Shown in pieces: positions 36,593-57,969 of a stretch of 64,000 nt of DNA (position 1 is the stretch's first letter; every line of letters starts with the position of its first letter). The stretch comes from Candidatus Latescibacterota bacterium. Its GTDB lineage: Bacteria > Latescibacterota > UBA2968 > GCA-2709665. The notes beneath the pieces are model-generated. The model saw nothing but the letters and a program-made list of their open reading frames with translations, searched no databases and had not been told where the DNA came from. The stretch spans positions 4,864,001 through 4,928,000 of the forward strand of contig OZ242358.1 in NCBI GenBank assembly GCA_965208835.1, in the 5' to 3' direction. Position numbers and translations under genes: made by a program.

Positions 36593-37699
36593 CTATTGCG
36601 ACGGTTGTCCCGCGGACACCGCCAGGTCCTTGAACAGGCTCCGGTACTTGCCGTAGCCGGCCGTCTTCAGCTCACCCGCGGGGATAAACCGCAGCGAGGC
36701 CGAATTGATGCAATAGCGCAGGCCGGTCGGCGCGGGCCCGTCGTTGAATACGTGGCCGAGGTGGGAATCCCCGTATTTACTGCGCACCTCCGTTCGGGTC
36801 ATGAAAAGACTGTTGTCCACGTGCTCAACCACGTGTTCGGTCACGAGCGGCTGCGTGAAGCTCGGCCATCCGGTACCCGACCGGTATTTGTGGGTTGAAC
36901 TGAATAGGGGCTCGCCCGACACGATATCCACGTAGATGCCCGGCTTCTTGTTGTCCCAGTACTCGTTGCGGAACGGACGCTCGGTACCGTCTTCCTGGGT
37001 CACGTTCCACTGCAGCGGCGTCAGTTTCCGGCGCAGCTCCGCGTCGGGGGGTTTGTTCCAGATCCCGCTGGAAGATTTGGCCGCTTTGTCCCGCCCCCAG
37101 GTCTTTTCGATGAACCGGTCGCGGCCGGAGCCCTTCCGGTAGCGGTTGTAGTGGGCCGGCTTCTTCCTGTAGTAATCCTGGTGATATTCCTCCGCCGGAT
37201 AAAAGGTTTCCGCGGGCCGGATAGGCGTCACGATGGGGGCGTTGAAGCGACCGGATTTCTGAAGGGCCTCCTTTGAGGTTTCCGCCAGCTCTTTCTGCTT
37301 CTCGTCATGGTAGAAGATAGCGGACGAGTATTGATGGCCCCGGTCATAGAACGACCCCCCCGCATCGGTGGGGTCGAACTGCATCCAGTAGACGTCGAGC
37401 AGTTGCGCATAGGTGACCACGGAGGGGTCGTACGTGACCAGCACCGCCTCGATGTGCCGGGTACCGCCGGAACTGACCTGGCCGTAGGTGGGATTCCGGA
37501 TCTCCCCGCCGGTATAACCGGAAACCGCGGACACAACGCCTTCCAGCTTGTCGAATGGGGCTTCGATGCACCAGAAGCAGCCGCCGGCAAACGTGGCTTG
37601 CTCCATGTCTTTCGTTTCGGAACTGCCGTCCATTGCGCCCAGGGCCAGGGCGACAACGAGAACGGCAGCGGTGAACAACAGCAAAAGCGTGGTTTTCAT
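36593..37699 (-). CDS. msrAB: Exported bifunctional methionine sulfoxide reductase MsrA-MsrB
   Basis: Signal peptide; GCFWC and AEEYHQDYY (MsrA); GWPSF, HLGHVF, RYCINS (MsrB). Confidence 0.93.
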
Positions 37700-37875
37700 A
37701 TGGTATCCTCCTGGAATTTCCGGCATCCGGTCTGAAAGCGTCGCATCGGTTAAAGACGATTAAAAATCACAAATCCGGTCGCCGGTCGTCATTCCTGATG
37801 CACGAGAGGGAATCGGCAATCTCTCCCCATGAAACGCCGGCGGAGGGAGTTGGGTTGCATGAAACAACCAAAGAA

Positions 37876-38006
37876 GCGGGGAGAGGGAAGACGTGAGCCG
37901 GTAGAAGAAGCCCTTGCCCGGTATATTCTTCCTCTTTGCCTTTGGCACGGGAAGAAACCTCACAAGGCAGGTAATCTCTCCCGTCTTGCGTCTCCCGTCT
38001 CCCCGC
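37876..38006 (+). repeat. Family A element copy 5
   Basis: Core TTGCCTTTGGCACGGGAAGAAACCTCACAAGGCAGG with 7-mer arms. Confidence 0.85.
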
Positions 38007-38065
38007 ATTTAGCTGATCGCTCTTTCTCACTTGATACATGAACATTTGTGCAGCATATTCAGGAC

Positions 38066-38863
38066 ATGGCGCATGCGCACCTGGAAATCGAAGAGGCCGC
38101 GGCGCGTTCCGTACTGATGCCGCAGGACGGCCCACCCGTCACGCGATACACCCTGAATCCATACATGGGCTGCGGGATGGGGTGCGCCTATTGCTACGTG
38201 ATGAAATACCACTACGCTATGGAACATCCCCTGCCGTGGGGCGCGTGGGTGCAGCCGAAGACGAACGCGCCGTATCTGCTCGGCAAGGCTCGGGACAAGA
38301 TCTGGGGCCGGCGGATCTTCGTGGGCTCCGCCACCGACCCGTATCAATACGTGGAACGGCAGTACCGGCTGACCCGCCGCTGCCTGGGCGTGCTGGAGGA
38401 CAGCAACCCGAAAGACGTTGTGGTACATACGCGGAGCCACCTGGTTCTGGACGACGCGGAACTGCTGAGGAGGTTTAAATCCCCTCTGCGCGTTTGTTTT
38501 TCCGTACCCACGGACGACGACCGCGTGCGGAGAAAGCTGGAGCCGCACGCCCCGCGCATCGATGTCCGTCTTAAGACCATGCGACGCCTCAGGTCAATGG
38601 GCATTCACGTCACCGCGGCGGTGGCGCCTCTGCTCCACTGCGAGCCCACCCGGTTTGCCGGGCTGCTGAAAGACGCCGCTGACGACGTCTACACGGGGTC
38701 GATGCGCTATACCGACAAGACGGGCCTTCACGCGACGGGCAGAGCCAGGGCATATTTCGAAAGCGCCCGATACCAGGACCTGGTCGCGGAGACGGACCGC
38801 TGCCTCGACGCGGCCGGCCTGAAGACGAACCGCGACGACGAGCGGGATTTCGCATCGCGATGA
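38066..38863 (+). CDS. Radical SAM protein (SplB/Rv2578c-like)
   Basis: NPYMGCGMGCAYCY, SATDPYQ..E..Y.LTR, LEP. Confidence 0.85.
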   Translation: MAHAHLEIEEAAARSVLMPQDGPPVTRYTLNPYMGCGMGCAYCYVMKYHYAMEHPLPWGAWVQPKTNAPYLLGKARDKIWGRRIFVGSATDPYQYVERQYRLTRRCLGVLEDSNPKDVVVHTRSHLVLDDAELLRRFKSPLRVCFSVPTDDDRVRRKLEPHAPRIDVRLKTMRRLRSMGIHVTAAVAPLLHCEPTRFAGLLKDAADDVYTGSMRYTDKTGLHATGRARAYFESARYQDLVAETDRCLDAAGLKTNRDDERDFASR

Positions 38864-38966
38864 GAGAAAAAAAAAGGAATGCGCGAAGGTATGAGGTCCT
38901 TCGGACATCCCGTGTGCGAACCGCGTTGCCTGCGGCGGGGCGATTACGATTTCTGTATCGGGGCTG

Positions 38967-40433
38967 TCATCTCAACCTGCGCCGCATGGGACGCCGGGGC
39001 GAGGGTGAGGCGGAGCGGATCTCGGCGATGAACTCGGCGGCCGCGTCGCTGTATGTTTCGAACGGGTCCTGGAGACTCAGGTGGCTTTCGTTCTCCAGAT
39101 AGACCGAGTCCCAGTCCACGATATACCGCATCCGGTTCTCCGACAGGGCCCTGATCACGTCGGACCGGCCCCGGGCGCGCGTATCGGCGGGCGGCTCGTC
39201 TCCCGCGCGGGCGATCTGCTCCTCGGACAGAATGCGGTGGGTCATCCCCTTGTGCTCCATGTCGAGGAAGAATCCCCGGTTGGGATCGATATTGTGGAAC
39301 TCCAGATCCAGGCTCTGGAGCCACGGATCGTTCCACTCCAGGCCTTCCGACTGCACGAACATATCCAGCATCCACTTCTTCGCCACCCAGTCCAGCCGGT
39401 CCTTCAGGACCATCGGATCCCGTTCCAGGTCGTCCAGCGTCTTCTCCCATTCGACCAGCACCCAGTCCGACTCCTCATCCATCCCGCGCAGATGCTGTTT
39501 CGCCAGATCCAGGTACCGGCGCTGGATATCCACGGCCGAAACCGGCCTTCCGTTCTTGCGCTCCAGAATCCATTTGTGGGTCGGGTCCCGGGAAATCTCC
39601 TTCAACGCCCACACCGGGTCGCCGAGGCCCACGTCCTGCGGGAAGATCTTGTGTTCGAGCAGATTCAACACCATCGCGGTGGTACCGACCTTCAGCGCGG
39701 TGGCGTACTCCGACATATTCGAATCGCCCATCAGCAGGTGCAGCCTTCGGTACTTGTTGTAGTCTGCCAGCGGTTCGTCGCGCGTATTGATGATCGCACG
39801 GCTGAACTGGATCCACTGATAGATCTCCGTGACGATGTGGTCCGCGCGCTGCGAAATCTGAAAGGCGACGGGGTCCTCGTGTCCGGAGTCGTCGACGTCG
39901 TCCCTGCCATAATAGTAGAAGCTGTCGTCGTAGCTGCCCACCCTGCCTGCGCCGCTGTAAATCTGCCGCGTTACCAGAAAAGGAAGCAGCGCCGGTATCA
40001 CAACCATCGAGAACGGCACGTTTCGCCGAATCAGGTAATTCTCGTGGCAGCCGAACGTGGCGCCGGTGTAATGGTCGATATTATTCTTGAGGAACGACGC
40101 CTCTTTCGCCAGCCCCAGCGAACGAAGCGCGCGCTGCAGAAGCCGTTCTCCCGCCCGGTCCGAGGCCACCAGGTCGAACAGGCTCTTGCATTCCGGCGTG
40201 GTGTATTCGATATGCCCCATATCGATATATACCCTGCCGGAATTGAACAAAAAACCGCCGTTTCCCGGCGGTTCGTCCCGGCCCCGATAGTGGATGTCGA
40301 CGATCCCCTTGCGCTCGGTGTGGAAGACATGGTCCTTCACCTTCACCGTAATGGCATCCGGGCTGACGAACCCCTCGTGCTCCGGCGCCATGCACCCGAA
40401 TTCGGTTTCCAGACCGAAAATGCGACGTTCCAT
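38967..40433 (-). CDS. pafA: PafA-family Pup/UBact-protein ligase
   Basis: RIFGLETEFG, GCHENY, SQRADH, IINTRDEP, RRLHLLMGDSNM, LDLEFH, TRA. Confidence 0.88.
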   Translation of the reverse strand: MERRIFGLETEFGCMAPEHEGFVSPDAITVKVKDHVFHTERKGIVDIHYRGRDEPPGNGGFLFNSGRVYIDMGHIEYTTPECKSLFDLVASDRAGERLLQRALRSLGLAKEASFLKNNIDHYTGATFGCHENYLIRRNVPFSMVVIPALLPFLVTRQIYSGAGRVGSYDDSFYYYGRDDVDDSGHEDPVAFQISQRADHIVTEIYQWIQFSRAIINTRDEPLADYNKYRRLHLLMGDSNMSEYATALKVGTTAMVLNLLEHKIFPQDVGLGDPVWALKEISRDPTHKWILERKNGRPVSAVDIQRRYLDLAKQHLRGMDEESDWVLVEWEKTLDDLERDPMVLKDRLDWVAKKWMLDMFVQSEGLEWNDPWLQSLDLEFHNIDPNRGFFLDMEHKGMTHRILSEEQIARAGDEPPADTRARGRSDVIRALSENRMRYIVDWDSVYLENESHLSLQDPFETYSDAAAEFIAEIRSASPSPRRPMRRRLR

Positions 40434-40580
40434 ATCGTGTCCTCAATTGGACGCCTGCTGGATGATCCGCGTCCGCCTGAGCGGACGAAAGAAACCGACC
40501 CCACCGCCGCCAGCGGCCGGGCGCCCACAAGGGACGCCCCTACAGGCGAGGGGTAAGGATCTGGTGTTCGATGAGATCGT

Positions 40581-40616
40581 CGCCGACCCTTCGACAAGCT
40601 CAGGGACCGGCTCAGT
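40581..40616. repeat. Family B half element
   Basis: CGCCGACCCTTCGACAAGCTCAGGGACCGGCTCAG between prcA and pafA. Confidence 0.75.
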
Positions 40617-40640
40617 CTTCAGACGCAAGTTTGGCGGCAC

Positions 40641-41420
40641 TCAGCGATAGGGCTTGATTACGGGCTGTATCTCGCGATCGCCGAGGACGCGAAACCGGCG
40701 TTTGTCCGTGCCGGACCGGTCCAGAACCACGGCCTCGACCGTGGCCGATGCCAACGCGTCCTTCAGGATGGCCTGCAGGTCCGCTTCACCGGCCATCCGT
40801 TCCAGCTCCGACATTTCCCGTGGGATTTCGTCCAGGGTTCCAACGAACCGCCCGGCCGCCCACGCCTCCAGCGCGGCCTTCAATGCGTTCCGCAGGCTAA
40901 GCCGGTGGTTTTCCGGCAAACGGCTCCGCATCAAGCCGTCCGCTTCCGGAATCTCGCCTATAACGCCGCGGCCTTCGTGCTTCTGAAACGTGCCGTCGTA
41001 GTCCACGGTATAGAAGACAGCGCCTTCCTCCGATACATCCAGTTCCAACATCAGGACACGCACGATAAACGGCGACCGGAAGACTTCGTCGAACGCCGTC
41101 TTGACCGCCGGACCCAGGCCGAAGTGTACGATCTGCTGCAGGTTTACGTCCTGCTCGGAATAATTGAACCCGATCACCGACGCCAGGTCCACGGCGGACT
41201 GCCGCAGCTTTTCGATGTCGGCCGGATGCCCAAGCGCGGCCATACCGATGCGGTCGTAGACCTCGAAGATCTTCTGTTGCCCCTGACCCAGCGTCAGGAG
41301 CAGGGCGCCGTCCCGCCAGGCCAGACCCACAACCGGGCTGCCGCCCCGGAGCTGGTCCTCTATATACTCCCGCCGGTTGGCTACCGCCTCCGCCCATCGA
41401 TAGGGTTCGTCCAGCATCAT
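40641..41420 (-). CDS. prcA: 20S proteasome alpha subunit
   Basis: GSPVVG, KIFEVYDRI, EAVVLDR, RRFR; immediately downstream of the beta subunit. Confidence 0.85.
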   Translation of the reverse strand: MMLDEPYRWAEAVANRREYIEDQLRGGSPVVGLAWRDGALLLTLGQGQQKIFEVYDRIGMAALGHPADIEKLRQSAVDLASVIGFNYSEQDVNLQQIVHFGLGPAVKTAFDEVFRSPFIVRVLMLELDVSEEGAVFYTVDYDGTFQKHEGRGVIGEIPEADGLMRSRLPENHRLSLRNALKAALEAWAAGRFVGTLDEIPREMSELERMAGEADLQAILKDALASATVEAVVLDRSGTDKRRFRVLGDREIQPVIKPYR

Positions 41421-42235
41421 CCCTCATCGTCTCCCGATTCCCCGGCACGGGCAATATACCGCTCGAAACACGCCCGCAGATCCTCCTCGGGCACGGTGCG
41501 CAGGCCATCCGCCGAGATCGTCTTCACCGTGGGCAACACGCCGGCGTCCCGTTCGTACCTTCCGGTGGCGGCATCGTATTCCGCGGCCGTATGCAGCAGG
41601 CGCAGGGCCATAACGAGGCTCTCGCTCCGGTCCAACTCGGCAAACGGACGTTCGCCCCACTGGTTATTATAGAACATCGCACCCCGGATGGCCGCCGCGC
41701 CGGATCCCGTCGTGGAAAAGTCGGCGCTCTCGAACTGCGCTCCCAGCACGTCGTAGAAGAAGATCTTGCCTCGGCTGTCCTGTCGGTCGAACGTGGCGAA
41801 AATGGGAATCACCGGGCCGATGCCCTGCATGGCCATTGGCAGGTTGTCGCGAATCAGGAGGGAGAGGCGCCGCAGCTTGGCCGCCAGGCTCATTTCCTGC
41901 AGCTGCCGCCGCCGGTGATATTGAAAGGTGTGTTCGAGGATGCGGGCGATTTCGTACGCCATGGCCGGCGACCCGGAAATGGCCATCACCGAAAACGCGT
42001 CGATATCGATGACCTTGTCGGCGCGGTCATAAAGCACGGTGTGGCCGGCGGTGGCCCGCCGGTCCCCCGCAATGAGGACGCCATCCCGGTAGCGAAGGGC
42101 CAGGATGGTCGTGCCCTCGGTGGGTTGAAACGGAAGGGACGCCGCGCTACCCGGCGCGTTTTCCTTCAGGTCGGCGCCGGGCAGCCGGTATCCCTCAGCC
42201 TTGAGCAGATCCAGAAAATCCCCACCCGCGCCCAT
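41417..42235 (-). CDS. prcB: 20S proteasome beta subunit with propeptide
   Basis: EG|TTILAL autoprocessing site (Thr1), AGDRRAT, GSG, DAATG. Confidence 0.92.
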   Translation of the reverse strand: MGAGGDFLDLLKAEGYRLPGADLKENAPGSAASLPFQPTEGTTILALRYRDGVLIAGDRRATAGHTVLYDRADKVIDIDAFSVMAISGSPAMAYEIARILEHTFQYHRRRQLQEMSLAAKLRRLSLLIRDNLPMAMQGIGPVIPIFATFDRQDSRGKIFFYDVLGAQFESADFSTTGSGAAAIRGAMFYNNQWGERPFAELDRSESLVMALRLLHTAAEYDAATGRYERDAGVLPTVKTISADGLRTVPEEDLRACFERYIARAGESGDDEG

Positions 42236-42239
42236 AGGC

Positions 42240-42431
42240 TCACTCGCCCGTGCGCTGGCGGTAGCGTCGCGCCTGATTCGGGTCCACGCGCCGCATGCGG
42301 CGCAGCAGGTCGCGGGTATCCGGACGATCGACGTCCGGTCGGGACGGTCCGTCGTTCCCGTCGTTCGGCTCCCCGTCGGGGGCTTCAGGCCGCCGGGTCC
42401 GCCGTTCAAAACCGGCCAGATCTCTCTTCAT
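42240..42431 (-). CDS. ubact: Ubiquitin-like protein UBact (63 aa)
   Basis: Strong SD AAGGAGGAGG; disordered N-half; LLRRMRRVDPNQARRYRQRTGE C-terminus (R[ST]G[EQ]); lies between dop and prcB. Confidence 0.88.
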   Translation of the reverse strand: MKRDLAGFERRTRRPEAPDGEPNDGNDGPSRPDVDRPDTRDLLRRMRRVDPNQARRYRQRTGE

Positions 42432-42487
42432 AGCCACCTCCTCCTTGTGTTTCCGAACGGCTACCATACACATTACGCGACCCGAGG

Positions 42488-44008
42488 TCAGGCCTCAAGC
42501 GCGTTCAGGAACTCATCCAGTTCATCCGAGCGATCCAACGTCTTATTATAATGCGCGACCTTCTCCCCATCAACCAGATCCTTCATATCCACGGAACGCT
42601 GTTCCCCGTTCCGGAAGAAGACGATCCGGTCCCAGTTGACCGATTTGACGTCATGGCCGAACTTCTCAAGGCATCGTCCGCGGAACCAGGCACGGGTGTC
42701 GGCAGGCGGGACGGACATCGCTTCCTCGATGCGATCGTCGTCGATGAGGCGGACCATCTTCCCCTGCGCTTCCAGCAGGAAATACAGCCCGGCCTCCCGG
42801 TCCACGTTGTGATACTCCAGATCCTGGCTCTGAAGCCACGCCAGGTCGTCCGGATTGTCCCAGGAAAGTCCCTCCGCCTCACGAAAGCAGTCCAGCAGCC
42901 ACTTCTTGCTGACCCAGTCGCAGATACCCACCAGGGCCATGGGATCCCGTTCGAGGCCGACCAGCGTCTCCTCCCAGGCGTTCAGCACCCAGTCCGTTTC
43001 CACGTCGCGGCCTCCGAACCGCTCCTTCGCCAACGCCATGTACATCCGCTGCACCTCAACGGACGGAACCAGACGGCCGGTTTTGCGATCCAGCTCCACC
43101 AGCCACTGATAGCTCTGGTCGCGCGACACGTCCTTCAGCGCCGAAACAGGATCCTTCAGGACCACGTCGGGCAGATCGTCGTGTTCCACCAGCGCCACCA
43201 CAAGGGCGGTGGCGCCGACTTTCAGCGCCGTGACGTATTCCGACATATTCGAGTCGCCGAGGATCACGTGGAGCCTGCGGTACCGGCCGGCATCCGCGTG
43301 CGGTTCGTCACGGGTGTTGATAAGCGGCCGCTTGTGCATCGTGTCGACGCTGGCGATCACCTCAAAGAACTCGGACCGCTGTGAGAGCTGATAGATGGAC
43401 GCCCGGTCGCCGCGTTCCACGCCCATCTTGCCCGCGCCCGCGTAAATCTGACGCGTCACCAGGAACGGAAGCAGGCCCTTCACGATCCGATCGAACGGCG
43501 TTCCACGGTCCATCAGGTAATTCTCGTGACACCCGTAGCTGTGGCCTTTGAAGTCGGTGTTGTTCTTGTAGACGCGCACCACGCCCCCGGACAGCATCTC
43601 CGTGCGCCGACGCGCGCAGATATCCACGATCCGCTCGCCCGCCCGGTCCTGTGCCACCAGTTCGAAGAGGCTGAGGCACTCGCCCGTGGAGTATTCAGGA
43701 TGGGTATGGTCATTGTAGAAGCGGGCGCCGTTGCGGATAATCAGGTCGCTCTTCAACTCCTCCAGCGGCACCCTTCGCTGGCGGTCTTTCTGAAGGTGGA
43801 CCTTCTCGTCGGTATCGTTCAAAAGGGATTCAACTTCAAACCCCCGCACGTCCTTGCGGGGGTTCTCCAGCTGATAGTCCCAAAGGGGCGTGAACTCACC
43901 CCTGAGGTAGCACCGGATCAGCTGCATCGACTCCTCCACCACGTCGATCCTCTCCTCGCCGTCGATCGTGATCCCGTATTCCGTTTCAAGGCCGAAAAGT
44001 CGATTCAT
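42488..44008 (-). CDS. dop: Dop-family depupylase/deamidase
   Basis: GLETEYG, NGARFYNDHTHPEYST, YKNNTD, SYGCHENY, RLHVILGDSN. Confidence 0.88.
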   Translation of the reverse strand: MNRLFGLETEYGITIDGEERIDVVEESMQLIRCYLRGEFTPLWDYQLENPRKDVRGFEVESLLNDTDEKVHLQKDRQRRVPLEELKSDLIIRNGARFYNDHTHPEYSTGECLSLFELVAQDRAGERIVDICARRRTEMLSGGVVRVYKNNTDFKGHSYGCHENYLMDRGTPFDRIVKGLLPFLVTRQIYAGAGKMGVERGDRASIYQLSQRSEFFEVIASVDTMHKRPLINTRDEPHADAGRYRRLHVILGDSNMSEYVTALKVGATALVVALVEHDDLPDVVLKDPVSALKDVSRDQSYQWLVELDRKTGRLVPSVEVQRMYMALAKERFGGRDVETDWVLNAWEETLVGLERDPMALVGICDWVSKKWLLDCFREAEGLSWDNPDDLAWLQSQDLEYHNVDREAGLYFLLEAQGKMVRLIDDDRIEEAMSVPPADTRAWFRGRCLEKFGHDVKSVNWDRIVFFRNGEQRSVDMKDLVDGEKVAHYNKTLDRSDELDEFLNALEA

Positions 44009-44058
44009 AGACCGCGCTCAATCTCCGATTTTATGGCAAAAACTGTGCGGTGACAAAT

Positions 44059-44259
44059 GGCGGGCAGAGGGAAGAGGGTAGACGGTAGAAGAAAGGCGGG
44101 TAGAGGTAAGACGGTAGAGGGTAGAGATTTCCTGCCTTGTGCGGCTTCTTTTCGTGCCGGAGGCAAGGAGGGATAAAATAGCCGGCGAGGACATCTTCTC
44201 CCGTCTTACGTCTCCCGTCTACCCGGTCTTCTCCCCCTCTCCCGGCTTACGTCTACCCG
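44059..44259 (-). repeat. Family A element copy 6 (between arc and dop)
   Basis: Reverse-oriented core CCTGCCTTGTGCGGCTTCTTTTCGTGCCGGAGGCAA with 7-mer arms. Confidence 0.85.
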
Positions 44260-44266
44260 TTCTTCG

Positions 44267-45988
44267 CTATACAATCCGCCGGCCACGCCGGCTGGCTTCC
44301 CGCCCGGGGCGAATCGGCGACGCCCGCACGACGTTTTCGGGATCGTAATCGAGCAGCTTGAGCCAGTCCTCGGTGTTATCCGTTGGCGGGAAGATTTCGT
44401 TCTCCGTGTATTCGGTTTCGACTGCCTGGAGCAGATCGTCCTGGGAGATACCCTCTTCGTATCCGGATGCGATGGACCGGCGGATGGCCATCTCTTTCGC
44501 GCGTCTCACAATGGACTCCATGATCGCCCCGCTAGCCAGGTCCCCCCGCCGGAGGACGTCCTTCCGGCCGCTTCGGAGGGTCACTTCCAGAAATCTCGTA
44601 TGGTCCCTTTTCGAGAAGATCTCTTCCGACGTGCGCGCCACGAGCGTCTCCACGGCCGCGGCGCCGTCCCCGCCGTGTTCTTCCATCGTCTTCCGGTCGA
44701 TCGGAATATCGGGCGTCAGATAGATCTTGAGGATATCGAGCGCGCCGTACCTGTCGGGGCGCCTTACCTTGATCTTCCGGTCGATCCTTCCCGGCCGCAA
44801 TATCGCGGGATCGATCAGGTCGGGGCGGTTCGACGCCAGGATGATCACCACGTCCTGCAGCGACTCGATGCCGTCCATCTCCGAACAAAACATCGGCACG
44901 ACGGTATTCGAAATGCTGTGCGACCGCATGGCGCGGCGCGTGCCGAGAACCGATTCCGCCTCGTCGATGAACACCACGGGCAGGTACCCCTCCTTGCGCT
45001 TTTCCCGCGCCCGGGAAAAGATCTCCCGAATCTGGCGTTCGGACTCGCCGAGCCACATATTGAGGATTTCCGGCCCCTTGATGTTCATGAAACATTCCTT
45101 CAGGTCCAGACCGGCCTCCTGCTGGGCCTGCTTAACGAGGTTGTAGGCGGTTGCCTTGCCGATCAGCGTCTTGCCGCAGCCCGGCGGGCCGTACAACAGG
45201 AAGCCCTTGGGAACGCTGTACTGGAACCTGGAGAACAGGTCCGGATGCAACGCCGGCATCTCGATCGTATCCTTGATGGCCTGGATGGCCTCCTCCTGAC
45301 CGCCGATTTTCTCCCAGGGCAGGTTCGGAATCTCTTCGAGGAAATAGTCTTTCGCCTCCTTTTCCGGCATGCGTTCCAGCGCCACGCGGAAGTTCGGGTC
45401 CACGCGAACCTCGTCGCCCGCCTTCAGGGACTCCGCTATGAGGTCGCTCGACCGCGAAAGCACGGTGACCTGGCCGCCCGGTTCCTGTCCAACCCGCAAC
45501 CGGCCGTCTTCGAGCACGTCGGATATCTTCGCGACCTGGCCGGAAGAGGAATAGCCGAGGTCGCCGACGATGGCGAACGCGTCGTTGACCAGCACCCTCG
45601 CGCCCACCTTCAGCGCCTCCAGTTCCAGCCGCGAATCGACGTTGGCGTAGTATTCGGAGCCGCCCACGCTGATGTATGCCACTCCGTCGCCGGGGGCTTC
45701 AAGAAGCGTACCCACGCGGTTGGCCGGCGCCGTCACTTTCTCGAGAGCGGCCTCCATCTCCACGATGGTCCGCCTCGCCTCCTCGAACGTAATCTCGTCT
45801 TCCTGAAGCTGCCGGCGGAGATGGTAGAGCAGGGGACGACGTTTGTCCTTTTCGTCCATCGACATCAGTATCTGGTCGATTATGGACAGCGACTGGAACG
45901 TGTGCTGCATGTCCACGTAGTCCTGCAGAAAGTCGTCCGGCGACTTTCGCTGGCGAGGTTCTTCGTTCGGGCCGTTAATGGCGCTCAC
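44267..45988 (-). CDS. arc: Proteasomal AAA+ ATPase (ARC/Mpa-like)
   Basis: N-terminal coiled coil + OB region, GPPGCGKT, IKGPEILN, VFIDE, SNRPDLIDPAILRPGRID. Confidence 0.9.
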   Translation of the reverse strand: MSAINGPNEEPRQRKSPDDFLQDYVDMQHTFQSLSIIDQILMSMDEKDKRRPLLYHLRRQLQEDEITFEEARRTIVEMEAALEKVTAPANRVGTLLEAPGDGVAYISVGGSEYYANVDSRLELEALKVGARVLVNDAFAIVGDLGYSSSGQVAKISDVLEDGRLRVGQEPGGQVTVLSRSSDLIAESLKAGDEVRVDPNFRVALERMPEKEAKDYFLEEIPNLPWEKIGGQEEAIQAIKDTIEMPALHPDLFSRFQYSVPKGFLLYGPPGCGKTLIGKATAYNLVKQAQQEAGLDLKECFMNIKGPEILNMWLGESERQIREIFSRAREKRKEGYLPVVFIDEAESVLGTRRAMRSHSISNTVVPMFCSEMDGIESLQDVVIILASNRPDLIDPAILRPGRIDRKIKVRRPDRYGALDILKIYLTPDIPIDRKTMEEHGGDGAAAVETLVARTSEEIFSKRDHTRFLEVTLRSGRKDVLRRGDLASGAIMESIVRRAKEMAIRRSIASGYEEGISQDDLLQAVETEYTENEIFPPTDNTEDWLKLLDYDPENVVRASPIRPGREASRRGRRIV

Positions 45989-46064
45989 CTCCGGAATCGA
46001 AATGACAACTCGGAAGAGGGTTTGTCAGGGCTGTGTGAGGGGCTGAGGTGAGAGGTCGCCTAGA

Positions 46065-46204
46065 GGCGGTGAGACGGGAGACGTAAGACGGTAGATGAAA
46101 TCTTCGCCCGATATTTTTTCTCCTGCTTGCCTCCGGCACTAGAAGAAACCTCACAAGGCAGGCAATCTCTCCCGTCTAACGTCTCCCGGCTTACGTCTAC
46201 CCGC
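46065..46204 (+). repeat. Family A element copy 7
   Basis: Core TTGCCTCCGGCACTAGAAGAAACCTCACAAGGCAGGCAAT with 7-mer arms. Confidence 0.85.
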
Positions 46205-46210
46205 TTTTTG

Positions 46211-47113
46211 CTAATCGTCCATTTCGCGTTTGAAGGACAACTTCATTTTGGCGCCCGCGTTCTCGACCTTGACGTTGCCCCTGATCACGGTGACGTCCAC
46301 CTCTTTGAACGACACCTTGATTTCATGCGCGATGACGAGCCCCCGGTTCACGTCGATGGTCCATTTGCCCTTTCCCTCGCCCGTGCCATCGACCATAATC
46401 GACACCGCGTTGGAGAATATCCATCCCCGGTACCGCATCTGCCGGGTCTCGTCGATGAGGGCGACCCGGCGGCCCTTCTTCTTCGTCAGACGCTTCAGAA
46501 CGTAAACGCTGTTGATTTCCACCGATCCTTTATCCTGCAGCGCCGGGATAGCGATTTCATGGCGACGAATCCCGTTCCAGGAATCTCCCGATCCGACCTC
46601 CCGTTCGGGCAGGACGGGATGAATTTCCGGTACCCAGAGCTGCTGCAAATCGGTGATGGCGCCTGCGCGGCGCACCTCGTACGACTTGAAGCCGGGTTTG
46701 AATCCCGCCACGTTGCCATCTGCGGTCACGTTCCACGAAAAGTTCCGGCCGTTGAAGATATCGAGCAGATAGGGAAAGTTGCCCTCGCTGATCTGAACGC
46801 GGTCTTCCATTACCGTGCTTTCCGCATCCTGAACCGTCGCCGTGACGTTCGCGACGCCCGCTTCAATCGCGCTGACCGCTTCCCTGCTCTTCCACTTTCC
46901 GTACATCCGCACATCGACCGTACCGGAGGTCTTGTCGTCGTCGATCAGGTCTGCGCGGCCGCTATAGTATTCCAACGTCCAGGAGTTTTTGTATAGGTTC
47001 GACTGTCCCGATTTGTAGACGAAACTGAGCGCCACCTTCTCGCCGTACGCCGTGCCGGCGGGAACGACCAGGGCATATGAGATTATCAGGCAGAGAAAAC
47101 GATACCGGGCCAT
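46211..47113 (-). CDS. Exported hypothetical protein (beta-rich)
   Basis: Signal peptide ending AYG; SD GGAGGGAG; LPEREVGSGDSW motif. Confidence 0.75.
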   Translation of the reverse strand: MARYRFLCLIISYALVVPAGTAYGEKVALSFVYKSGQSNLYKNSWTLEYYSGRADLIDDDKTSGTVDVRMYGKWKSREAVSAIEAGVANVTATVQDAESTVMEDRVQISEGNFPYLLDIFNGRNFSWNVTADGNVAGFKPGFKSYEVRRAGAITDLQQLWVPEIHPVLPEREVGSGDSWNGIRRHEIAIPALQDKGSVEINSVYVLKRLTKKKGRRVALIDETRQMRYRGWIFSNAVSIMVDGTGEGKGKWTIDVNRGLVIAHEIKVSFKEVDVTVIRGNVKVENAGAKMKLSFKREMDD

Positions 47114-47177
47114 GGCTCCCTCCGTACACTATGGTGGACAATAGCCTGTCGGATTTTAAAGGCGACACAGTTGCTTA

Positions 47178-47206
47178 AGTATAGCCCGGTGTTTTTGGAA
47201 TGTCAA
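47178..47206 (-). promoter_or_regulatory. Sigma70-type promoter
   Basis: TTGACA-17 bp-TATACT on the minus strand, ~65 bp before the 47113 start. Confidence 0.7.
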
Positions 47207-47283
47207 CCCGTACCGTGATTCGTGTGATTACTATGAAAAAAGCTGATTAAAACCACGGAGAGACTTTGGAAGATTGACAGTTA

Positions 47284-47805
47284 TTAACGGGATTTGCGGG
47301 AGGGAGGGAGGGAGGGAGGGATCGCGGGGTTTCCCTGGGTTCGTTGTTTGAGCATACGGTTGTACACTCTTTTGAATTCCAGGCTTTTTGCACCAAAGTT
47401 GATGAGCAGACCGACGTTCAGATCATACGCCTCGAGGTAGTTCTTGGCTTGCGCCAGGTGGGCGTCGGTCAATTCGACCACCGCCTTCAGTTCAACGCAG
47501 ATGACGCTCTCCACCAGGAAATCAACTCTCCTCAGGCCTATCTGTCGCCCCTTGTAGAATACAGGCATTTCGTGCTCACGACTGAAGGAGATGCCGGCAT
47601 CCTCCATTTCCATCTCCAGCGCATTCTGGTAGATGACTTCACGGAAGCCGTTTCCCAGCCCTGAATGCACCGCCATCGCGCAGCCGATGATTCTCCCCGT
47701 AAACGCATGGTATTTTTCTTTTATGTTTGTCACATCCGGAATTGATGCAAATCCAGGGCCAATTCCGGGATTGACAATAGTTGCCTGTGAGGGAACAGGG
47801 TGCAT
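47284..47805 (-). CDS. GxxExxY protein (PD-(D/E)XK-like nuclease fold); start may be the GTG at 47733
   Basis: IIGCAMAVH.GLG.GFREVIY, DFLVE..ICVELKAV, AQ..NYL, GLLINFG. Confidence 0.9.
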   Translation of the reverse strand: MHPVPSQATIVNPGIGPGFASIPDVTNIKEKYHAFTGRIIGCAMAVHSGLGNGFREVIYQNALEMEMEDAGISFSREHEMPVFYKGRQIGLRRVDFLVESVICVELKAVVELTDAHLAQAKNYLEAYDLNVGLLINFGAKSLEFKRVYNRMLKQRTQGNPAIPPSLPPSRKSR

Positions 47806-51302: not shown

Positions 51303-52769
51303 TTACTTGAGCAGCAGCATCTTCTGGGACAGCGTGGAGGTCCCTGCTTCCACCCTGGCAATATAGACGCCACTTGCAACGCCACGTCCCTGGTTATCCC
51401 TGGCGTCCCACTGGACCGAGTAGCGGCCGGCCGAGTTGAACTGAGAGATGAGCTGGCGCACCTGCTGGCCCAGCACGTCGTAAATCACGACCGAAACCGG
51501 AGCGGACTCGGGCAGTTCGTAGGAAATCGTGGTGCTCGGGTTGAACGGATTCGGATAGACGTTAACCGCGAACTCAGTGGGCAACGGCATCCGGGCGCCC
51601 AGAAGCACCTCGATCACGTTCGACTGCGAGACCGAGCCGTCCAGGTCCACCTGCTCGAGCCTGTAATAAACCTTGTCCACGCCAGGCAGGTTCTGGTCTT
51701 CAAAGCTGTAATTCATCAGGGCATCCGACGTTCCGGCGCCCTGAACGAAATTGCCGACCGACTCAAAGGTCTCACCGTCGACACTGCGCATGACCCGCCA
51801 GCCCGCGTTGTTCGTCTGCGAGACCGTGGACCAATTCAGCACCACACGGTCGGTCTGCATCGCGCCGTCGAAGGAGGCGAGTTCGGCCGGGTTCAACTGC
51901 GTGAACGTAAACTTCACGGCTTCCACCTCGTGTCCGTCAACCACGGCCTTCACCGTCACCACGAGGGATCCGCCGGTTACCTTCAGTACGATTTTGGTTG
52001 GCGCGTCCATCAACATCATCATATCGTCGAGCTCGAGCATCATGTCTTCTTCATCAAAGATGCTCAGCGTGCCTTCGCCTTCGTCTCGAATGTCCCAGGT
52101 TACGCTCGGCGTATCGGACATGACGTTCTCTAAGGCTACGGTCACTCGGACGCTTCCGCCTTCCTCGCCGGGAATCTGAAGCATATTCCCTGCCATCAAA
52201 TCGTCGCCCATGCCCATTATGCTGGGACCCGACGGCGCTGCGACGGTCACGACAGCGGCGGACACGTCCAGGGAATCTGCCGCCGCGCCCGCAAGTGCTA
52301 TAACGGCAGATTTCACATAGAAAGAAGCGCCCTCCGGGGCATCCGCGGCCCCAACGATCTTCACGGTGCCAAGATATCCGTTGGCGGGTATATCAGCCGA
52401 CGGCAACGCCGCCACCTGGACTCCGTGAGGCCCAACCTTCAATTCCAGAGGGAAAATGGTAGACGCGCCGACAATCCCCCAGGCTGCGTCGGGAATCATC
52501 ATTTCTCCAAGCGCCGCGCCAAATTCGGCGGAGAAACCCACCGCTTTCTTGCCGCCGCCGCCTTTCACAAACAATTCAACCTTCACCGTGTCACCGGCCA
52601 TGGCCATCGAAGGCGCCACGGTATTCTCACCTTCGTCATACTCCATATTGACCACGGTATCCACAACCAGCATCGAGTCCGTGAGGCTTGCTTCGACGCC
52701 TCCGGCCCCAACCGCAACGAGAAACGCCACGGCGACCGTAACGAAGCTAATCGGCTTAACTCTATGCAT
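51303..52769 (-). CDS. Secreted protein with C-terminal FlgD-Ig/T9SS-type-A-like sorting domain
   Basis: Signal peptide; PAELASF..WST..Q.NN.GW...YYRLEQVDLDG module; YPNPFNPSTTISY...ASGVY...KMLLLK. Confidence 0.85.
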   Translation of the reverse strand: MHRVKPISFVTVAVAFLVAVGAGGVEASLTDSMLVVDTVVNMEYDEGENTVAPSMAMAGDTVKVELFVKGGGGKKAVGFSAEFGAALGEMMIPDAAWGIVGASTIFPLELKVGPHGVQVAALPSADIPANGYLGTVKIVGAADAPEGASFYVKSAVIALAGAAADSLDVSAAVVTVAAPSGPSIMGMGDDLMAGNMLQIPGEEGGSVRVTVALENVMSDTPSVTWDIRDEGEGTLSIFDEEDMMLELDDMMMLMDAPTKIVLKVTGGSLVVTVKAVVDGHEVEAVKFTFTQLNPAELASFDGAMQTDRVVLNWSTVSQTNNAGWRVMRSVDGETFESVGNFVQGAGTSDALMNYSFEDQNLPGVDKVYYRLEQVDLDGSVSQSNVIEVLLGARMPLPTEFAVNVYPNPFNPSTTISYELPESAPVSVVIYDVLGQQVRQLISQFNSAGRYSVQWDARDNQGRGVASGVYIARVEAGTSTLSQKMLLLK

Positions 52770-52838
52770 CTCACTTCTCCTTCCCGGTGTGTGTGTTTCG
52801 GCTCCAGAATACATGCTCGCTCCAGAAGAAAAACCAAA

Positions 52839-52883: not shown

Positions 52884-55800
52884 CTACTTGAGCAACATCA
52901 ACCGCTTGGCATCCTGGAACTTACCGGCAACCGAGACCTGATAGAAGTAAATTCCACTCGAAACCGATACTCCGCGGTCATCCATTCCGCTCCACTGCAC
53001 CGTGTAGCGGCCGGGCGCCTGGCGCTCACGCACCAGCGTGCGCACTTCCTGACCCAGCAGGTTGTAGATCCGAAGGACCACGTCCCCGCCTTCAGCCAGG
53101 TCGTACGGAATGTTGGTTTGCGGGTTGAACGGGTTCGGGAAGTTCTGATGCAGCGCGAATTCCGTCGGCGTGCTCTGCACTTCCAGCGCACCAAGCGTCA
53201 CCACCGGGTTCGACAGCCGCTCGGGATCGAACACCACGCCCTGAGCAATCTCGAACCGGGCGCTGTCCTCGAACTCCCTCAGAACCTTGAACGTGAACGT
53301 CACCAGCGCGCCTTCGCCGCCCACCGAGCCCGAACCGGTGATGGCGTTGACCACCGTCACCCGGCCTTCGTCAGCCCAGTTCTTGAACAGGGGCGTCTCG
53401 CCGCCTTCGGACTTCAGCAGGTCCTTCTCGGCAGCAACCGCGCTGACGAACTCGAACTTGTCAGCGTCATACATCAACTCCAGGCCGTAGCCGTTCAACG
53501 CTCTGGCGTTGGCCATCGATACCGTCACCGAGATCGTCTCGCCCACCAGCACCTTCTCGCTGGCCAGCTCGAGCGTCATCTCCGTATCGGCATTCACGCC
53601 GGGACGCTGCGGAACCACCGCCAGCTTCGACGCCGGCGCCGCTGCCGTCCGACCAAACGATGCTGACGCCTGGACGAAGTCCGTGAAGTCGACCGTTCCG
53701 TCGTCGTTCACGTCAGCCTGCACGTTGTAGTTATCATCGCCCTTCTGGCTGCCGAAGGCGGCCGCGAAAGCGATAATGTCTTCAAAGTTGACCTCAAGGT
53801 CGCCGACAGGCGGAAGCACCATCAGATAAACCGCCTCGCCTTCGGCGTCCACGAACTTCGCACGGTTCGCGATGTTATACACCGTGATCGCCTCACCCGC
53901 CGCGTCGTTGTTGTCGTCGAACGCGTCGATACGGTAGGTAAGTGTGAAGGCGCCGTCCGGAAGGTTCGCGTCAACGAACTCCGTTGAACCCACGTCAACC
54001 GTGCCGATAGTCTCAAGGGCTTCATCTCCCAACGTGCCTCGCAGCACCTTGTAGCCCTTCACGCCGTAGATCGGCACGCTATGCCCGCGGTACGGAATCG
54101 CGTCGACAATTCTTCCGTCATCGGCCGAAACCGTCCAGGACAACGTCACCTGCGCACCATCGGCGCCGCTGCCCAGCGCACCGCCAGCGTCCGTTGCGGC
54201 GGCGGGAGCGATGTCGTCGATCGCGGCGACAGGCTTCTCCGTGGCCGTACGCTCGGACGCCATCTTCGGGTGCCCGCTCGTACGGATGTTCGACGGAACC
54301 GAACCGTTGCCCAGCAGTACGCTCACGTCCGGATTCACCGGCGCGAAGACCAGGTTCTTCTGATCACCGAGGATCGATGCCACGTAATCCTCAGGCGCGT
54401 TGAACTGGTTCACCAACTCGTCGTCCGTCAGAAGGTCGGCCTCAGGCATACCCAGCAACTCGAGGGTCTGCTGCACGCTCTCCTTCGTGAACACACGCTT
54501 CCCGGTAGCAGGCGTCTGGTCCGAAGAACCTCCGACGCCAATCGCCGCCACCGCCCAGTTGGTGGGCTCGTTGTCCAGCGCAGGGATCACCGCGCGCTGG
54601 ATGTCCGCATTCGGATCCTCAGACGTCAGTTTCGCCCACGGCACCCACGCCATCATGGCCTCGTCCAGCTCGACCAGGTTGCCGAGAGAATCAGGACCTG
54701 TGGTTACCGACATCTCCCTGAAGATCTGATAATTGTCCACCGTGGCGTGATCGGCCGAGTTCGGGAAGCTAACCATCACCATCCCGCCCTGGTCGCCATC
54801 ACCACTGGGACCCTTGTAATCCTGCACGATCAACGACGCAGGCGCACCAGGCGCGCCAGGCGCCGGCGGCGGAGGCTCGGTACCGAAGCTCAACGTATCC
54901 GTTCCTGCACCAGCCGGATCGCTACTGAATACCCGGATCACGACGTCACCCGATGCGTCCGCTGCGACACCCTGGAAGGTGTTCGCGCCTTCAACGATCT
55001 CCTGCCTTCCGGGAGGCACCGAAACCTGCGGGTTACTGGACGAAATCTCGATTGCGATGGTCTGATGTTTGTCGTCCTCGTCGTCCGTATCCTCGTCGAG
55101 CGTGGCGCCGATCTTCATGCTCGGGTTGCCGAACTCGTCTGTCGCTGTCACCGAGATCTGGAACTCGCCGATGACATTGTCAGTCGCCTCGCCGTCCTCC
55201 ATCGCCTGGACGGTGAACTGCGAGAACGCCCCGGAGTCGAAAGTGAACGGTCCCAGAGTCGTACTGAAACTGACGTTGCCCTGGTCGTCCAGGCCTTCCA
55301 CAACGACCATCACACCGGTCAGCGTCAACTCTGACGAGATGCTCACGCTACGCCCACCCGCTTCCCAGTTATCGGGGTTAAGCGTGGCGATACCCATCCC
55401 GGTATCTGCGGGGGCGATCTCAACGCCGTCTCCGGAGAACGAAACGCTCTCCAGCCGGTCAGCCTGGTCTTCCGGGACTTCAACGCGCACACGCGACTTC
55501 TCGTCACCCTGTCCATACGTGACTCCAGCGACGTCGGCGCCCTCCGCGGCGGTCATCGCCGAATCGAGCGCAGTCAGAGCCAATACCAGGTCCGCGCCGG
55601 TAATCACCGATTCGACGTCATCCGCATCCACCATAAACGAGTCGGCAGTCGGGTTGTCGAAATCCTCGTCGAACCTCAACTCTGTGGTGACTGTAGCGCT
55701 GCCGTTACCCGCCATGTCGAACGCAATGAGCTGCAGGTAATAATCACGGCCGTCATCGAGCTCATCGTTATCTTCGCTCGCAAAGTCGATGGCTACTTTG

Positions 55801-57587: not shown

Positions 57588-57969
57588 CTCAACCTCCCTG
57601 AAAAAAAGACCACTGGGAAACTTCCTCACAACCTCTACTCCTTTTGAATCTTCCGAATCTTGCTTCAACCGTCCGGAATGGCGGTTATCCATTGAATCCT
57701 GATGCGCAGCGGCGATAGGGCGCCTCCCTTCTCTTGATGCTGCGATACCTGCCTTGAAACGTTAGGGTGAATGGTGATTGTGGGTGTACTGATGAGCGAC
57801 AACTGATTAACATCGCATTTTCGTGTGCACCTCCTTGTTTATATATACAAAAGCGAAAACGCGACCAACTTTCGCCACATCTGAACACCACAACGTTGGC
57901 GCAATATTCCGCATATCTTCAGTCATTCCGGGCAAATTCGTCCACCTATGTGTAGCGAAAAGCAACCTA

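Follow-up and report, generated by a model that had tools for sequence, protein, structure and literature searches.

Two kinds of described system stand closest to the locus analysed here, namely the Pup-proteasome system of actinobacteria (Mycobacterium and relatives) and the UBact systems, in which the tag belongs to another family. UBact was reportedly first described in 2017. Two models of this tag already exist, i.e. Pfam PF20513 and NCBIfam NF033388, and the founding paper of 2017 is cited in PMC12751074. Pup-like conjugation outside actinobacteria had been noted in 2008 (PMC2588565). In the literature searched, which did not include the founding paper, no experiments on UBact were found; PMC11354881 contains only a passing mention of UBact, the searched text of PMC7203096 none, and no paper retrieved carries both Latescibacteria and proteasome in its title or abstract. 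Here, we describe a UBact locus in a 64,000-nt stretch of DNA from a Candidatus Latescibacterota bacterium (contig OZ242358.1, positions 4,864,001 to 4,928,000), referred to below as the window.

A sequence-only reading of the window had proposed a complete arc-dop-ubact-prcB-prcA-pafA operon with all genes co-oriented and all motifs intact. Six co-oriented genes were indeed found on the minus strand (45988-38967), namely arc, a dop-like gene, UBact, prcB, prcA, and a pafA-like gene, within the same limits (38967..45988), and the catalytic residues are in place in ARC, the Dop-like and PafA-like proteins, PrcB, and PrcA. The further statement of that reading, that the substrates and physiology of UBact are largely uncharacterised, was not contradicted by the literature searched. 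The operon is a known kind of system that is typical for this bacterial group. Because of the genes present, their order, the intact catalytic residues, the conservation of the locus across the lineage, and the purifying selection acting on the 63-amino acid (aa) open reading frame (ORF) of the modifier, the locus very probably encodes a working UBact-proteasome system, which would be the counterpart of the actinobacterial Pup-proteasome system.

For comparison, 80 related loci were fetched and assigned to types according to the ORF located between dop and prcB. This ORF is of the UBact type in 43 loci and of the Pup type in 31, and no dop-prcB pair lies within reach in the other 6. Where all genes of a UBact-type locus are in reach, they follow the order arc-dop-UBact-prcB-prcA-pafA.

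The UBact modifier, its enzymes, and the 20S subunits

The 63-aa ORF, which is placed between dop and prcB in the window as in 43 of the 80 related loci, scores above both curated UBact cut-offs (PF20513, 74.2 bits vs 27.8; NF033388, 78.5 bits vs 35), and its match to NF033388 spans positions 2-54 of the 54 profile positions. No match to Pup (PF05639) was obtained for this ORF at E <= 0.01, and none was obtained genome-wide at E <= 0.1. The earlier claim that the modifier is UBact rather than Pup, for which a hidden Markov model search of UBact versus Pup had been suggested as a check, is thus upheld, with the small ORF scoring as UBact and not as canonical Pup.

The start codon (ATG) of UBact lies 5 nt downstream of a Shine-Dalgarno sequence (AAGGAGGAGGTG). 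The last 36 residues are nearly invariant among 120 UBact homologs. When the window was compared with each of 43 related loci, the last 36 codons showed 650 synonymous and 132 non-synonymous codon differences, summed over comparisons that are not mutually independent, and the nucleotide differences at codon positions 1, 2, and 3 numbered 136, 43, and 720, respectively, i.e. 720 of 899 fall on the third position. A single pair, the window and locus L012, differs by 21 synonymous changes and one amino-acid change. The 63-aa ORF is under purifying selection and evolves as a coding sequence, and it is presumably translated.

UBact of the window ends with RYRQRTGE, and because its terminal residue is Glu (Glu63), it would be ready for ligation, so that deamidation would not be needed here. 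Among the 120 homologs, the C-termini are RYRQRTGE (94), RYRQRTGQ (23), and RYRQRSGE (3). In the lineages of the 23 homologs that end with Gln, a deamidase would therefore be required.

The Dop-like protein matches PF03136 with 517 bits and scores higher with the Dop model TIGR03688 (449.4 bits) than with the PafA model (359.9 bits). It aligns end to end with A. cellulolyticus Dop (4b0r; 408.6 bits), D100 corresponding to D94, and keeps the Dop-loop of ~40 residues, the motif of which (WD..ENP..D.RGF) reads WDYQLENPRKDVRGF in this protein. Four of the nine alpha-loop positions listed in Table 1 of PMC7947786 are identical to Dop. The Dop-like protein is the predicted de-UBactylase, i.e. the enzyme that removes UBact from proteins, and the predicted deamidase where the tag ends with Gln. 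The PafA-like protein (PF03136, 464.3 bits) scores 364.2 bits with the PafA model TIGR03686 and 350.9 bits with the Dop model. Its D71 occupies the same position as the catalytic Asp, the Dop-loop is absent, and the protein is the predicted UBact-protein ligase.

A predicted complex of the PafA-like protein with UBact, modelled with the alignments A1 and A2, received a score of 0.82, compared with 0.01 for the best of three controls. Of 80 solved complexes, 58 attained this mark, as did 2 of 110 mismatched pairs. At least 82% of contacts recur between runs, the partner has a predicted local distance difference test (pLDDT) value of at least 52, and the modelled contacts place UBact residues 38-62 against the active site (residues 11, 13, and 71-74) and the groove (355-397) of the PafA-like protein. 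The model supports binding of UBact by the PafA-like protein, although a Pup-PafA complex has already been solved (4bjr) and the pass may partly reflect likeness to that structure.

PrcB matches PF00227 with 81.3 bits and the Rhodococcus beta subunit (2h6j) with 106.9 bits. A propeptide of 41 aa is followed by a cleavage site between EG and TTILAL, and T1, D17, and K33 are present (AGDRR...DKV). PrcA matches PF00227 with 35 bits and M. tuberculosis PrcA with 48.4 bits, and its K50 is aligned to K52 of the latter. The features expected of a bacterial 20S proteasome, i.e. a propeptide, Thr1/Asp17/Lys33, and an adjoining alpha subunit gene, can all be recognized in the predicted products. ARC matches PF00004 (AAA), PF17758, and PF16450 (the latter two being proteasomal-ATPase OB domains), contains Walker A (GPPGCGKT) and Walker B (VVFIDEAE) motifs, and aligns with M. 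tuberculosis Mpa (7ljf) with 351 bits over residues 66-565.

By analogy with the Pup system, both conjugation and degradation may be expected. The PafA-like protein would use ATP to phosphorylate the side-chain carboxylate of Glu63 of UBact and join the tag to target lysines; a hexamer of ARC would recognize the tag, unfold the target, and thread it; and a 20S particle composed of PrcA and PrcB would degrade the target. The Dop-like protein would remove the tag and, in lineages with Gln-ended UBact, would also deamidate it beforehand.

Charge and ARC tail in UBact-type and Pup-type loci

Contrasts between UBact-type and Pup-type loci are in effect contrasts between two clades, not among many independent events, and the values in this section are given as patterns, not as statistics. 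The last 30 residues of the tag have a mean charge of +4.7 across the 43 UBact-type loci (range +4 to +6) and of -8.1 across the 31 Pup-type loci (range -11 to -6). The charge of the enzyme grooves, taken at the positions placed against UBact by the PafA-like/UBact model, is of the opposite sign in each case: for PafA, it is -3.5 in UBact-type loci (n=13) and +1.9 in Pup-type loci (n=23), and for Dop, it is -3.9 (n=12) and +2.0 (n=31), respectively. The whole proteins are also more acidic in UBact-type than in Pup-type loci (PafA, -20.7 vs -4.1; Dop, -27.0 vs -18.7). No clear shift was found for the coiled coil of ARC (-2.5, n=41, in UBact-type loci vs -1.6, n=27, in Pup-type loci).

ARC of the window has a basic C-terminal tail (...RRGRRIV) and not GQYL. 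None of 42 UBact-type ARCs ends with GQYL, whereas all 31 Pup-type ARCs end with GQY[LV]. Instead, 39 of the 42 UBact-type ARCs end with [VI][VI] and three with TV or SV, so that the last residue is always Val or Ile. Five additional ARCs, from UBact-bearing genomes in the phylum of locus L040 (genome G168, the record of which is titled Chthoniobacteraceae), end with GVI, RVV, AVV, GVV, and GVV. The last 14 residues of ARC have a mean charge of +4.1 in UBact-type and -0.8 in Pup-type loci, and the mean net charge of PrcA is -17.0 (n=43) and -4.1 (n=17), respectively. In M. tuberculosis, GQYL of Mpa is needed for opening of the 20S gate (PMC8142254), and docking must therefore differ in detail here.

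These patterns raise the possibility, for which we claim slightly less than even confidence, that the UBact and Pup systems are orthologs with inverted charges. In UBact systems, the enzyme-binding helices of the tag would have changed from acidic to basic, both enzyme grooves from basic to acidic, and the GQYL tail would have been exchanged for a basic, tyrosine-free [VI][VI] tail that faces a more acidic alpha subunit, the system being near-universal in one Latescibacterota class (125/131 genomes, without HslV). If such an inversion took place, the UBact and Pup tagging systems should be mutually orthogonal, and the way in which ARC docks on the 20S particle would be unlike that in any solved proteasome-activator complex. 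The differences in tag, grooves, and ARC tail are in our reading those of one old system that has been re-tuned as a whole. Neither the charge inversion nor the tyrosine-free ARC tail was found in the literature searched; together they yield testable hypotheses on tag specificity and on engagement of the 20S particle without a penultimate tyrosine.

Weighing of the proposed system and of alternative explanations

Several points weigh against a working UBact-proteasome system as proposed above, in addition to the two-clade nature of the contrasts just described. All five larger proteins score below the NCBIfam equivalog cut-offs (ARC, TIGR03689, 473.7 vs 504.75; Dop, 449.4 vs 492.3; PafA, 364.2 vs 551.3; PrcB, TIGR03690, 168.5 vs 191.9; PrcA, TIGR03691, 69 vs 139.05), and their functions are therefore carried over from fairly distant relatives (Dop shares 41-45% identity with Pup-type loci). 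The PafA-like protein scores 276 bits with Dop structures (from residue 61) and 233 bits with the PafA structure 4b0t (end to end), and its alpha-loop matches PafA at two and Dop at one of the nine discriminating positions (Table 1, PMC7947786), so that its assignment as the ligase depends chiefly on the absence of the Dop-loop and the place of the gene in the operon. Furthermore, since ARC lacks the GQYL motif that M. tuberculosis needs, its coupling to the 20S particle is presumptive.

The affinity of the PafA-like protein to Dop structures also bears on the origin of the two enzymes. The UBact ligase/deligase pair could have arisen by its own gene duplication, separately from PafA and Dop of the Pup systems, in which case the names dop and pafA would not denote orthologs; we regard this as unlikely. 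In a tree based on all columns (51 rows; Pup-type thinned to 16 of the 31 loci, UBact-type to 14 loci plus the window), the best topology does join the UBact-type Dop-like and PafA-like proteins against both Pup-type groups (support 94/96), which agrees with the PafA-like protein being nearer to Dop structures than to PafA structures. However, the approximately unbiased (AU) test on all columns did not reject a single clade of all Dop (p = 0.19), while a third topology was rejected (p = 0.010). When the columns of the modifier groove (345-405 of the PafA-like protein) were left out, all Dop fell on one side of the best tree, although with weak support (61/55) and with the rival topology only 3.3 log-likelihood units worse (p = 0.42). 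Because the best topology changes once these columns are dropped, most of the signal that joins the paralogs appears to lie in the groove with which both would accommodate a single tag. In addition, both Dop groups have the Dop-loop with its motif and both PafA groups lack it; if there was a single duplication, this takes one loss, and if not, two losses. One ancient duplication is reported in PMC7947786. We lean towards one ancient duplication, after which the two paralogs would have become more alike as each fitted its groove to the tag common to both.

A second alternative concerns the step after tagging. UBact tagging could be real but loosely or not at all coupled to the 20S particle, with ARC, in the absence of a GQYL or HbYX tail, acting mainly as a stand-alone unfoldase or remodeller, UBact serving chiefly as a regulatory or protective mark, and the proteasome being fed by another route. 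The absence of GQYL from all 42 UBact-type ARCs, set against GQY[LV] in all 31 Pup-type ARCs, fits this explanation, as does the dependence of gate opening on GQYL in M. tuberculosis; even in that species, robust degradation by wild-type Mpa with the 20S particle has not been reconstituted (PMC8142254). Nevertheless, UBact-type loci having all genes in reach keep arc in one cluster with the two 20S subunit genes, and the UBact-type ARC tail is itself conserved in its terminal Val or Ile ([VI][VI] in 39 of 42) and in the mean charge of its last 14 residues (+4.1). The lysine of PrcA equivalent to M. tuberculosis K52 is kept, and the greater acidity of UBact-type PrcA (-17.0 vs -4.1) fits a different docking mode via charge and hydrophobic contacts. 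Loosely coupled or uncoupled tagging is improbable in our view, and an ARC that feeds UBact-tagged proteins to the 20S particle is preferred.

Finally, a canonical Pup or an untranslated chance ORF in place of UBact would be suggested by the Pup-like placement of the small ORF between dop and prcB, its Gly-Glu end, and the last seven residues of UBact and Pup, which can be aligned in register (Y.QR.G[EQ]), but this explanation retains practically no probability and is already refuted as far as sequence analysis goes, given that PF05639 is matched by 12 of 12 small ORFs from Pup-type loci and by none in this genome (E <= 0.1), that the UBact and Pup profiles fail to match each other (hhalign probability 1%, E 0.051, not significant, so that sequence comparison does not establish common ancestry of the tags), and that a strong Shine-Dalgarno sequence precedes UBact, with the third codon position dominating the differences (720/899).

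Distribution, genomic setting, and comparison with known systems

UBact was identified in 128 of 168 species-representative genomes of the phylum Latescibacterota. Within families f1-f4, 125 of 131 genomes have it (the genome of the window, G000, is not counted), as do both genomes of f9 (2/2) and none of the 34 genomes of other families. In the phylum of L040, its occurrence is sporadic (6 of 151 sampled genomes). The nearest relatives of the Dop-like protein are mostly from Latescibacterota metagenome-assembled genomes (62-98% identity), followed by records of Chthoniobacter-type Verrucomicrobiota and Armatimonadota at about 50% identity and by records of Myxococcota, Nitrospinota, Poribacteria, and Actinomycetota at 40-45% identity. 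Several homologs of the modifier (P0005, P0039, and P0075) already bear the NCBI name 'ubiquitin-like protein UBact [Candidatus Latescibacteria bacterium]'.

Two other arrangements were encountered. In locus L031, neither UBact nor prcB or prcA comes after arc and dop despite a flank of about 7 kb, and in G168 (L040; G168:C89) UBact is located on a contig other than that of arc-dop. Some lineages thus have a divided cluster.

The host genome of the window consists of a single 5.18-Mb contig (97.8% complete). Genome-wide profile searches identified a single UBact and no Pup; the Pup-ligase and proteasome families are each represented by exactly two genes. HslV is absent from the host genome, prcB and prcA being the only members found in the proteasome-family search. 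HslV is likewise reported to be missing in actinobacteria possessing proteasomes (PMC3511204).

The features of the locus and its flanks are listed in Table 1. UBact, prcB, and prcA are tightly packed: the likely ATG of prcB (42235) is located 4 nt past the UBact stop codon, and prcB and prcA overlap by 4 nt. In one respect, the picture drawn by the sequence-only reading was amended, the remainder of the operon being as described there: both gaps of the operon (258 and 207 nt) are filled with repeat elements that occur genome-wide. The gap between arc and dop holds a palindromic interspersed repeat (about 130-190 nt), two inverted copies of which flank arc. With 40 of 189 candidates scored, this family gives at least 75 matches in the host genome, and the arc-flanking repeat folds strongly as RNA with -101.3 kcal/mol (z -4.98). 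The gap between prcA and pafA contains two REP-like (repetitive extragenic palindromic) units of ~36 nt, each with dozens of genome copies at 92-100% identity; at least 44 matches to these units were found in the genome (40 of 139 candidates scored). In more distant relatives (e.g. L016 and L027), arc and dop abut or nearly so. Since operon spacer lengths, including that of the prcA-pafA spacer, vary up to about 1 kb among close relatives, repeat elements seem to insert repeatedly into operon gaps. A scan for promoters and terminators gave 2 promoter-like and 9 terminator-like sites, which is not above shuffled sequence. The Rfam match obtained on 38000-47500, an L31 leader on the strand opposite orf300, was dismissed (26 bits vs a gathering threshold of 35; E 0.13).

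Table 1. Coordinates of the UBact locus and of neighbouring features in the window
Feature	Position	Strand	Description
1602-aa protein	52884-57692	-	cohesin domain, FlgD-Ig domain, and secretion-system C-terminal sorting domain
503-aa protein	51303-52814	-	same C-terminal domains as the 1602-aa protein
orf300	46211-47113	-	300 aa; signal peptide
arc-flanking repeat, first copy	46065-46213		palindromic interspersed repeat
arc	44267..45988	-	573 aa, GTG start; Mpa/ARC-type proteasomal AAA+ unfoldase; coiled coil, two OB domains, AAA domain
arc-flanking repeat, second copy	44059-44269		palindromic interspersed repeat, inverted relative to the first copy
arc-dop spacer	44009..44266		258 nt; one copy of the palindromic interspersed repeat
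dop-like	42488..44008	-	506 aa; Pup_ligase match; Dop-loop present
UBact	42240..42431	-	63 aa; C-terminal end ...DPNQARRYRQRTGE
prcB	41417..42235	-	20S beta subunit, 272 aa from the likely ATG; full ORF 42409-41417
prcA	40641..41420	-	20S alpha subunit, 259 aa
prcA-pafA spacer	40434..40640		207 nt; two short (about 36 nt) repeat units
pafA-like	38967..40433	-	488 aa; Pup_ligase match; without Dop-loop
msrAB	36593-37726	-	fused MsrA-MsrB methionine sulfoxide reductase

Upstream of arc, orf300 is directly adjacent on the same strand in most Latescibacterota loci (29-94% identity). Its product matches no family above the cut-off, with a weak hint of DUF6263 (nearest Atlas clusters, DUF6263 at 0.95). 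It was considered as a seventh operon member, but its signal peptide makes a role with a cytoplasmic proteasome unlikely, and orf300 probably represents a conserved neighbouring gene, not a partner. Beyond pafA, a convergent radical-SAM gene and msrAB follow, and no other Pfam-matching gene adjoins pafA. The msrAB gene, two genes downstream of pafA and on the same strand, is found near the operon in only 2 of the 80 loci (L001 and L002), and a conserved link is not evident. The 1602-aa and 503-aa proteins encoded further upstream are likely cell-surface cargo proteins.

The description of the host as a diderm is supported by 8 Omp85 matches in the genome and by secretion-system C-terminal sorting domains (PF18962) in the window. 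LpxC (PF03331), the single lipopolysaccharide gene searched for, was not found in the host genome; the host may possess an outer membrane lacking classical lipid A.

Taken alone, the locus adds little, because UBact operons are already known and automatically annotated. Its value is that of a well-assembled, typical example from the lineage in which the system is most constant, which makes it a sensible source of genes for a first biochemical reconstitution of UBact tagging. Compared with the UBact systems already described, it shares the tag family, the C-terminus RYRQRTGE, and the neighbours arc, dop, prcB, prcA, and pafA, and differs in nothing essential; the prevalence is high here (128/168 genomes vs 6/151 in the phylum of L040).

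Non-actinobacterial Pup-type loci (Myxococcota, Nitrospinota, and Poribacteria; L046-L079) resemble this locus in their six-gene order and in having hosts outside Actinobacteria. They differ in carrying true Pup tags (12/12 tested match PF05639), in ARCs that end with GQY[LV] (31/31), and in Dop proteins that are 40-45% identical to that of the window.

The claim that the operon mirrors the actinobacterial Pup-proteasome locus is corroborated by gene order, enzyme families, and catalytic residues, all of which agree. The likeness to the system of Mycobacterium and relatives extends to the Dop-loop, the beta subunit propeptide with Thr1, a disordered tag of ~60 aa ending with Gly-Glu/Gln, and the absence of HslV. 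In contrast to that system, UBact belongs to another tag family of opposite charge (+4.7 vs -8.1) with inverted enzyme grooves, ARC lacks GQYL, and five proteins fall below the equivalog cut-offs; in the present locus, moreover, pafA directly follows prcA and is itself followed by the convergent radical-SAM gene and msrAB.

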